Positions 26,887 to 27,251 of a stretch of 64,000 bases of DNA are shown in pieces. The stretch is from Acinetobacter phage vB_AbaS-Bhz15. The first letter of the stretch is position 1. Every line of letters begins with the position of its first letter. The stretch lies in the sequence record PV067732.1. One strand, 5' to 3'. Both the position numbers and the translations under genes were made by a program. The notes beneath the pieces are model-generated. The model ran no database searches and was not told where the DNA came from. It saw only the letters and a list, made by a program, of their open reading frames with translations.

Positions 26887-26987
26887 GGGTACTGATAGCT
26901 TAAATAGTAAAGCAGCGCAATAGGTGAAACTTCTAGAGTTGATGATCCTCGTTGATTTGGAGGTGCAAGCACTCCCAGTATCCACCA
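26887..26987 (+). ncRNA. tRNA-like small RNA (101 nt) ending in ACCA
   Basis: 7-bp acceptor-like stem GGGTACT/AGTATCC with a G3.U70 pair. D-like hairpin GCTT-AAATAGTA-AAGC. The T-like arm has the unusual loop GGTGCAAGC. There is no canonical anticodon arm. Confidence 0.4.
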
Positions 26988-27174
26988 GATTTATTAGAGC
27001 AAGTATAGCATATAAAAACGAAGTGAATAGGGTCGCTCCCGAAAATGTAGTTTTGAATAATTCTATTGAATGTGTCGGTCACTGCAGGGACTGCCAAGCT
27101 AGATAGATGAAACTTTAATGCACCGGTGTGGTAGCCGGGAGAAACTGAGGAAGTTGCTTGCATCTAATAAATTC

Positions 27175-27251
27175 GGGAATGTGGTGAAACTAAGTGAACG
27201 CCCTAGAATAAACTCTGGGACATGTCGGTGCAATTCCGACCATTTCCACCA
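27175..27251 (+). ncRNA. tRNA-like small RNA (77 nt) ending in ACCA
   Basis: Acceptor GGGAATG/CATTTCC (G3.U70). T-arm GTCGG-TGCAATT-CCGAC. The D and anticodon arms are non-canonical (bulged stem CCC(T)AGA/TCTGGG). It shares the GGTGCAA T-loop with the 26887 element. Confidence 0.4.

Follow-up and report, generated by a model that had tools for sequence, protein, structure and literature searches.

In the 64,000-nt stretch of Acinetobacter phage vB_AbaS-Bhz15 analyzed here (record PV067732.1; hereafter the window), a 365-nt non-coding block on the plus strand, at positions 26887-27251, very probably encodes three expressed, processed RNAs that are under selection. Two of these are like transfer RNAs (tRNAs): E1 (26887-26987, 101 nt) and E2 (27175-27251, 77 nt). 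Between them lies MID (26988-27174, 187 nt), a structured RNA. An earlier note on this DNA had counted two tRNA-like RNAs with a 290-nt spacer; the intervening stretch measures 187 nt, and the block holds three separable modules. On balance, we lean towards a reading in which these are tRNA-derived and tRNA-processed small RNAs that do not decode and that would serve as alanine-charged mimics of the tRNA acceptor end.

When single sequences were folded and compared with shuffles, the results were unremarkable (z = -2.0 for E1, -1.4 for E2, and -2.2 for MID), and a crude descriptor combining a T arm, a perfect acceptor, and NCCA had approximately 14 chance matches in the window. Consequently, the case rests on comparison with relatives, and it is clearest for E2. 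A single cloverleaf fits the four known E2 variants, with 98.8% of cells paired and compensatory changes in 7 of 21 pairs (the anticodon-type stem and the T stem have three each, the acceptor one). None of 500 shuffles matched the paired fraction or the covariation score, one matched the compensated-pair count, and slid controls were at most 55% paired. Covariation among related phages had been proposed as a check on the fold, and in these four variants of E2 the pairs were indeed kept.

The cloverleaf comprises an acceptor with a G3.U70 pair (27175-27181 with 27241-27247), a 3-bp D stem with a 12-nt loop (AAACUAAGUGAA), a 6-bp anticodon-type stem with a 6-nt loop, AUAAAC (27201-27206 with 27213-27218), the T arm GUCGG-UGCAAUU-CCGAC (27223-27239), and A73-CCA (27248-27251). 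The acceptor (GGGAATG/CATTTCC in DNA letters), its G3.U70, the T arm (GTCGG-TGCAATT-CCGAC), and the A-CCA end are all where they had first been placed. Acceptor pairs 1-5 and the T loop UGCAAUU are the same in every variant, and the D loop and variable loop are also largely invariant. A whole-window Rfam scan at gathering thresholds returned ordinary tRNAs only and missed E2; with permissive filters, E2 scored 31.9 bits and its copy in phage ZZ1 34.4 bits against the tRNA model (RF00005, gathering score 29 bits). A covariance model built from the E2 variants recovered only the four known (94-107 bits), followed by ordinary tRNAs of the same T-loop type at no more than 38 bits. An IMG/VR scan for the E2 D-loop/T-loop pattern gave 34 matches, all of which, except phage AbTZA1 itself, were chance matches inside protein genes, and none of the 107 matches in a metagenome scan for the E2 D region lay in an E2 context.

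E1 has a shorter plan. Its acceptor, also with G3.U70, pairs 26887-26894 with 26976-26983 (GGGUACUG/CAGUAUCC); it had been described as a 7-bp stem (GGGTACT/AGTATCC), which is present with its G3.U70, but the true length is 8 bp. The D arm, GCUU-AAAUAGUA-AAGC, occupies 26898-26913 (as DNA, the hairpin GCTT-AAATAGTA-AAGC) and, like the A73-CCA end at 26984-26987, agrees with the first description. The T arm, GGAG(G)-UGCAAGC-(A)CUCC (26959-26975), has a stem of four Watson-Crick pairs plus G.A that abuts the acceptor. With 8 acceptor pairs abutting a 4-pair T stem, E1 would form a coaxial stack of 12 bp, as in a normal tRNA. There is no anticodon arm; in its place is a variable center (26914-26958). 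E1 was matched, near-invariant, in 53 GenBank phage records and in two forms, one of 101 nt and one of 76 nt; the longer carries 25 nt inserted in its center. Enforcing the T arm in the long form costs 1.5 kcal/mol (-26.9 kcal/mol versus a minimum free energy of -28.4), and the insertion then becomes a hairpin resembling a variable arm.

Across an alignment spanning three genera, the acceptor, D arm, and T arm of E1 are invariant, and variation is found at linker nucleotide 9, at T-loop position 57 (A/G), in one pair that changes from U-A to U.G, and in the center. The E1 copies of ZZ1 and vB_AbaSI_3 are 98.7% identical. Between ZZ1 and Lazarus-type phages, by comparison, tRNA-Cys is 80.5%, tRNA-Met 83.5%, the suppressor tRNA 65%, and the flanking open reading frames (ORFs) approximately 73% identical. 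Such near-identity across genera points to either strong sequence-level constraint or recent horizontal spread. In the window, E1 starts 5 nt after the CCA of the suppressor tRNA; in Lazarusviruses it stands between tRNA-Cys and tRNA-Leu with 1-nt spacers, like one more tRNA of the array. In nhmmer searches, its nearest relatives were tRNA(CAU) genes (E about 1e-3 to 1e-4). A scan of GTDB genomes for the E1 T arm gave 12 matches, all unrelated hairpins and about as many as expected by chance on a rough estimate.

Both RNAs had been said to lack a normal anticodon arm. This holds for E1; E2 does have a covarying 6-bp arm, but its loop is abnormal, being AUAAAC (6 nt) in three variants and ACUUAAUAAC (10 nt) in ZZ1. 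Because loop length is free on a covarying stem, E2 would be unable to present an anticodon. Neither E1 nor E2 has the features of a decoding tRNA (a 7-nt loop on a 5-bp stem, U33, and a purine at 37), and ARAGORN calls neither. We therefore regard it as highly improbable that an unorthodox loop lets E2, and perhaps E1 as well, decode as a tRNA, for example as a frameshift or stop suppressor. E2 does score above the Rfam tRNA gathering score when filters are permissive, the phage carries both an amber-suppressor tRNA and a gene in which an in-frame TAG is conserved, and the long form of E1 contains a UUCUAGA that could mimic a CUA anticodon loop. However, the stem beneath this UUCUAGA has 3 bp, and the segment is lacking in the 76-nt form, the center of which has only a CAAC-GUA-GUUG triloop hairpin, itself broken in phage PhT2.

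The UGCAA T loop of E1 and E2 had been taken as unusual. Unusual it is, but not unique, and a reading of it as the sign of a special class of non-tRNA molecules is not supported, since the same loop occurs in ordinary decoding phage tRNAs. The key contacts of the canonical elbow are U54-A58, G18-U55, G19-C56, and G53-C61 (PMC7912444). E1 and E2 keep U54, C56, R57, and A58, have G at 55, and have D loops without GG; the partners of the 18-55 contact are thus altered together. Among 165 distinct tRNAs called by ARAGORN, a sample biased by the choice of loci and hence no estimate of frequency, 12 had a U-G-C-R-A T loop, and all 12 had a D loop without GG, carrying A-Y-A-G-N-A. The pairing of a U-G-C-R-A-N-N T loop with a GG-less D loop implies a co-varying 18-55 tertiary contact, and we observed this variant elbow in decoding tRNAs of nine IMG/VR and GenBank phage loci. 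For example, the tRNA-Phe genes of Kimel and Acj9 have the exact E2 loop, UGCAAUU. Some tRNAs with this elbow, including the tRNA-Phe of Kimel, are missed by ARAGORN.

An IMG/VR scan for the E1 D arm recovered tRNA(CAU) genes, one tRNA-Ile(GAU), and other tRNA-like sequences on unrelated, tRNA-rich phage contigs, and these tRNAs carry the E1 D arm together with a GG-UGCAAGU-CC T arm. The tRNA(CAU) genes share with E1 the exact D arm (GCUUAAAUAGUAAAGC) and the T-loop type. The decoding tRNAs of this type have normal 7-nt anticodon loops and are generally called by ARAGORN, whereas E1 and E2 have neither property. Judged by sequence, E1 and E2 are derivatives of a real class of phage tRNAs.

The intervening stretch had been described as having hairpins and no convincing ORF. 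Both points stand, but a third RNA gene had been missed: by its covariation, MID is a gene of this kind. It has no CCA and no tRNA shape. A closing helix of 17 bp with one bulge joins 26988-27004 to 27157-27174, and within it lie the hairpins GGG-UCGCU-CCC, UUCUAUU/AGAUAGA, and CCGG-UGUGGUAG-CCGG, all on the plus strand. Four variants are 91-95% identical to the copy in the window, and their differences fall mostly in helices, where several are compensated or tolerated as G.U. GGG/CCC changes to AGG/CCU, a C-G pair in UUCUAUU/AGAUAGA changes to U-A, and one hairpin passes from CCGG/CCGG to CUGG/CCAG to CUUG/CAAG. Changes from G-C to G.U, including one in the closing stem, preserve pairing on the plus strand only. 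MID of the window and MID of ZZ1 are 94.1% identical, compared with 69-82% for flanking genes. Rfam scans, at gathering thresholds and with permissive filters, gave no match on MID, and an IMG/VR scan for its invariant 17-mer returned only known phages and three unrelated matches. Likeness by eye to type I-F CRISPR repeats (UCACUGC, GAAAC) had suggested a repeat mimic; this candidate was rejected, as the stem is mismatched and the consensus fold places the bases differently.

The same changes bear on the annotation of this region, which in Maestro, Morttis, and AB-Navy71 assigns small proteins to it (in Maestro, CPT_Maestro_160 and CPT_Maestro_159). ORFs of 55-76 codons are present, but they are unannotated in AbTZA1, PhT2, and ZZ1 and extend across the borders of modules that ZZ1 carries apart. 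The substitutions take the form of compensated base pairs and do not fall at third codon positions, and in AbTZA1 a 1-nt insertion at the E1/MID junction would shift the frame of the only ORF that crosses that junction. That the region encodes these proteins is, in our judgment, scarcely credible.

The motif R-W-GAAACU is common to all three RNAs: it occurs on the plus strand at 26924 (in the E1 insertion), at 27107 and 27139 (in MID), and at 27184 (in the E2 D loop). Against these four copies in 365 nt, 0.07 would be expected from the window-wide frequency, and all four are invariant in homologues. The motif may be a shared site for protein binding or for pairing.

The three modules are not bound to one arrangement. 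In ZZ1 the order is suppressor tRNA, E2, tRNA-Arg, tRNA-Met, MID, tRNA-Cys, E1, while Konradin and other Lazarusviruses have, of the three, E1 alone. In phage Minot, the TCCACCA of E1 is joined directly to AATTATTTTT, the sequence that follows E2 in the window; TCCACCA forms the 3' end of both E1 (26981-26987) and E2 (27245-27251) and bounds the insertion or deletion of MID plus E2. From this unlinked order and from these gains and losses, each of E1, MID, and E2 is, on sequence comparison, an independent cassette that acts like a tRNA gene in an array. E2 and MID occur in the same nine GenBank records, which represent six phages. A functional coupling of the two was considered and is weakened by a ZZ1-like IMG/VR genome that has MID without E2. 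Eight IMG/VR loci were anchored on the downstream protein, and in the distant ones (L077-L079, L081, and L082) neither the covariance model nor nhmmer found E1, E2, or MID.

The surroundings of the block are those of a tRNA operon. Over positions 26600-27400, identity is 99.6% to Acinetobacter phages Maestro and Morttis and 99.5% to AB-Navy71, and matches are confined to T4-like phages of Acinetobacter in the subfamily Twarogvirinae. Nine tRNA genes are called by ARAGORN on the plus strand between 26807 and 30142, eight of them confirmed by Rfam. The first is the amber-suppressor tRNA(CUA) (26807-26881). The non-coding block ends at 27284, and the next gene starts with the ATG at 27285. In a comparison of Maestro, ZZ1, Konradin, and T4, the gene order gp3, gp1, 57A-like, 57B, tRNAs, segB is that found around the T4 tRNA cluster, which also carries the small stable RNA genes rnaD and rnaC. 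This synteny places E1, MID, and E2 in a T4-type tRNA operon, where, as with T4 species 1 and 2, non-tRNA RNA genes lie downstream of genes 1, 57A, and 57B. The Maestro genome paper lists seven tRNA genes only, and Maestro and AB-Navy phages have been employed in a clinical case (PMC9247103). A literature search found no paper describing E1, E2, or MID.

A likeness to the T4 RNAs had been suggested in the earlier note. It holds as an analogy of position and of likely processing, since the T4 RNAs and those described here are flanked by tRNAs and would be freed by tRNA-processing enzymes, but alignments and profiles do not support homology. Descent from a common set with species 1 (rnaC) and species 2 (rnaD) would be consistent with the shared operon and gene neighborhood, with the AGAAAC that occurs twice in rnaD and the GAAACU that occurs four times in this block, and with the tRNA-like 3' domain of rnaC. 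The architectural parallel between that domain and E1 is real, as each sets an 8-bp acceptor-like helix beside a T arm. However, local alignments of E1, MID, and E2 with rnaC and rnaD fall within shuffles (z from -0.9 to +1.0), and neither nhmmer profiles nor the E2 covariance model matched anything in the T4 locus. The sizes differ as well (101, 187, and 77 nt versus 139 and 119 nt), and rnaC lacks G3.U70 and carries the canonical loop UUCGAAU. Further contrasts with the T4 species RNAs are the complete cloverleaf of E2 and the absence of any tRNA-like part from MID. We consider homology very unlikely.

A transfer-messenger RNA (tmRNA) had also been suggested. E1 and E2 share G1-C72, G2-C71, G3.U70, A73, and CCA with the tRNA-Ala minihelix and the tRNA-like domain of tmRNA, and E1, like that domain, has no anticodon arm. 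Pair 4:69, by contrast, is U-A or A-U in E1 and E2 and not G-C. The block is of tmRNA-like size (365 nt), its G3.U70 and ACCA ends are as in tmRNA, a permuted-tmRNA model matched weakly at 27224-27287, and a small protein with an RF-1 domain is encoded 460 nt downstream. Yet that match, the best for the family, scores 16.1 bits against a gathering score of 47, and ARAGORN finds no tmRNA in the window. One acceptor helix is closed within E1 and another within E2, ZZ1 carries the three parts at separate places, single parts are missing from relatives, and no tag reading frame, mRNA-like domain, or pseudoknots were found. The suggestion does not survive these results, and a ribosome-rescue RNA of this type, whether in one piece or in two, has almost no probability in our view.

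Two other kinds of RNA offer partial parallels. The Y RNA-like YrlA RNAs of bacteria and phages likewise contain a tRNA-like module and do not decode, and some are encoded by phages; E1 and E2 differ from them in having true acceptor ends with CCA and not a Ro-binding stem. The Rfam YrlA model (RF02553) had no match on E1, MID, or E2, and no search was made for a Ro/Rsr gene. At the 3' end of MALAT1, the tRNA-shaped mascRNA is cut by RNase P and thereby sets the end of a neighboring RNA, as E2 would for MID. However, mascRNA belongs to a eukaryotic system, and the arrangement here is not fixed, as MID of ZZ1 is followed by tRNA-Cys.

What E1 and E2 retain is a full set of alanine identity elements. 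G1-C72, G2-C71, G3.U70, A73, and CCA are invariant in all variants of both, and in this light the proposal that G3.U70 marks alanine identity was a fair one. Among the 165 tRNAs, the combination of GGG/UCC with A73 occurs only in the two tRNA-Ala genes. For AlaRS, a minihelix of acceptor and T arm with G3.U70 suffices and the anticodon is ignored, so that charging of E1 and E2 with alanine can be predicted from the identity set; we give alanylation of the two an even chance. RNase P and the CCA-adding enzyme, in turn, recognize the 12-bp acceptor/T stack and the elbow. E1 and E2 would thus be tRNA descendants that no longer decode, having retained the acceptor/T-arm helix, the elbow of D and T loops, and the encoded CCA. 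They would be transcribed from the plus strand together with the phage tRNAs. RNase P would cut their 5' ends, 3' trimming would halt at CCA, and the same cuts would free MID as a separate stable RNA. Host AlaRS would then charge E1 and E2 with alanine. With no codon to pair with, they would work outside decoding, as mimics of the acceptor end, either as a sink or decoy for AlaRS or for a host factor acting on tRNA 3' ends or acceptor stems or, less probably, as donors of alanine to a non-ribosomal reaction. We hold such a role as decoys or donors to be tentative and rather unlikely.

A different account takes E1 and E2 to be relic tRNA genes, possibly former tRNA-Ala genes, with no function of their own, which are kept as RNase P "punctuation" for the maturation of neighboring tRNAs, MID, or the downstream mRNA. 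The kept acceptor, T arm, elbow, and CCA, with a free anticodon region, are what a substrate of RNase P alone needs. E1 is packed among tRNAs by 1-nt spacers, E2 directly follows MID in the window and would set its 3' end, E2 and MID plus E2 are gained and lost among close relatives, and a further degenerate tRNA-like element lies at 26690-26785. However, RNase P needs no particular acceptor sequence, and yet the 8-pair acceptor, D arm, and T arm of E1 are invariant where tRNAs have diverged by 16-35%. RNase P does not require the full GGG/UCC-A73 set that both elements have, the D loop and variable loop of E2 are conserved in sequence, and the ZZ1 copy of E2 has an ordinary tRNA on either side, so that a further cleavage site there would be superfluous. 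We therefore see the relic account as possible though improbable.

Several points weigh against the reading of E1 and E2 as functional, alanine-charged mimics. The near-identity of E1 across genera could mean recent horizontal spread and not constraint, and E1 varies so little that its fold draws no support from covariation. At the end of its T stem, G53.A61 replaces G53-C61, a pair that is strictly conserved in tRNAs, and the Rfam tRNA model fails to match E1 even at E<=10. E2 is known from only four sequence variants. It is missing from close relatives: Minot, approximately 96% identical over aligned pieces of the region, is without MID and E2, and the ZZ1-like IMG/VR genome keeps MID and E1 with only 11 nt in place of E2. 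Consequently, E2 would be dispensable for growth. G3.U70 is found in 10 of the 165 phage tRNAs, including Arg, Trp, His, Pro, and Tyr species, and in E1 and E2 it may simply be inherited from a tRNA-Ala ancestor. Beyond structure under selection, all that we propose is inferred from sequence.

The neighborhood of the block yielded further observations. A third non-decoding tRNA-like element lies at 26690-26785 on the plus strand (in ZZ1, at approximately 1596-1690 of locus L002) and scores 20 bits with the Rfam tRNA model. It has canonical D and T loops, a long variable arm, the loop UGAUACU, and no CCA, and its terminal helix is extended to 9 bp with a conserved tandem U.U/A.A mismatch. The outer helix differs in ZZ1 with complementarity kept, a T-stem pair in PhT2 is compensated from U-A to C-G, and the element occupies the place of tRNA-Tyr in Acj9. 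Just upstream of the tRNA operon, at 25604-26062 (plus strand), is the homologue of T4 57B, which is an Acb1 anti-CBASS phosphodiesterase (Pfam PF23474, 171.5 bits). In GenBank, several records label it merely as hypothetical or as an RNA ligase.

Downstream of E2, the gene at 27285-27611 (plus strand) is annotated from the ATG at 27369 (80 aa, PHROG 29342) and is open in frame back to the ATG at 27285, for which AGGTAGG provides a good Shine-Dalgarno sequence. Translation of the upstream part gives MKH*ICRKCIDKTSARSIYGIFNGEGKI-MRFT..., with TAG at codon 4. Konradin and ZZ1 conserve both this TAG and the peptide that follows it, with synonymous changes (L003 2075-2401; L002 2668-2994), and the amber-suppressor tRNA of the phage itself probably allows the codon to be read through. 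A crude screen of the window found no other equally clear case of TAG read-through. Inside the tRNA cluster, at 27713-27949 (plus strand), is a 78-aa stand-alone RF-1 domain (Pfam PF00472, 42.9 bits; PHROG 20323). It adjoins the suppressor tRNA and is conserved across the genera seen, with annotations in Konradin and Minot. Other residues stand in place of its catalytic GGQ (...RAKGASNWINRP...), which suggests a release-factor or ArfB-like domain that is dead for hydrolysis.

Within the cluster itself, tRNA-Arg(UCU) and tRNA-Asn(GUU) are encoded at 28987-29158 (plus strand); ARAGORN finds neither at the matching place in Maestro, where short minus-strand ORFs are annotated. CCA is encoded in most tRNAs of the cluster and in both tRNA-like RNAs, but not in tRNA-Thr and tRNA-Trp (28903-28974 and 30071-30142, plus strand). 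With such a mixture, both exonucleolytic trimming back to CCA and CCA addition must take part in maturing the operon.

If E1 and E2 are non-decoding, alanine-chargeable tRNA mimics, a wider role can be proposed. Together with MID, and perhaps with the element at 26690-26785, they may be RNAs of anti-defense or host takeover, with E1 and E2 soaking up a host factor that attacks or exploits tRNA acceptor ends or feeding alanine into a ribosome-independent reaction. This proposal is speculative and has only a small chance of being right. To our knowledge, the species 1 and 2 RNAs of T4 have had no known function for approximately fifty years, and, if true, the proposal would give the "extra" small RNAs, known since these two, their first assigned function. 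Independently of this role, an unrelated set of small RNAs appears to fill the niche of T4 species 1 and 2 in a therapeutic group of phages, and annotation that currently calls "hypothetical proteins" over RNA genes can be corrected. tRNA finders miss a recurrent elbow variant of phage tRNAs and its non-decoding derivatives. For E1 and E2 themselves, an intact alanine identity set on a body that would be unable to decode provides a biochemical handle.

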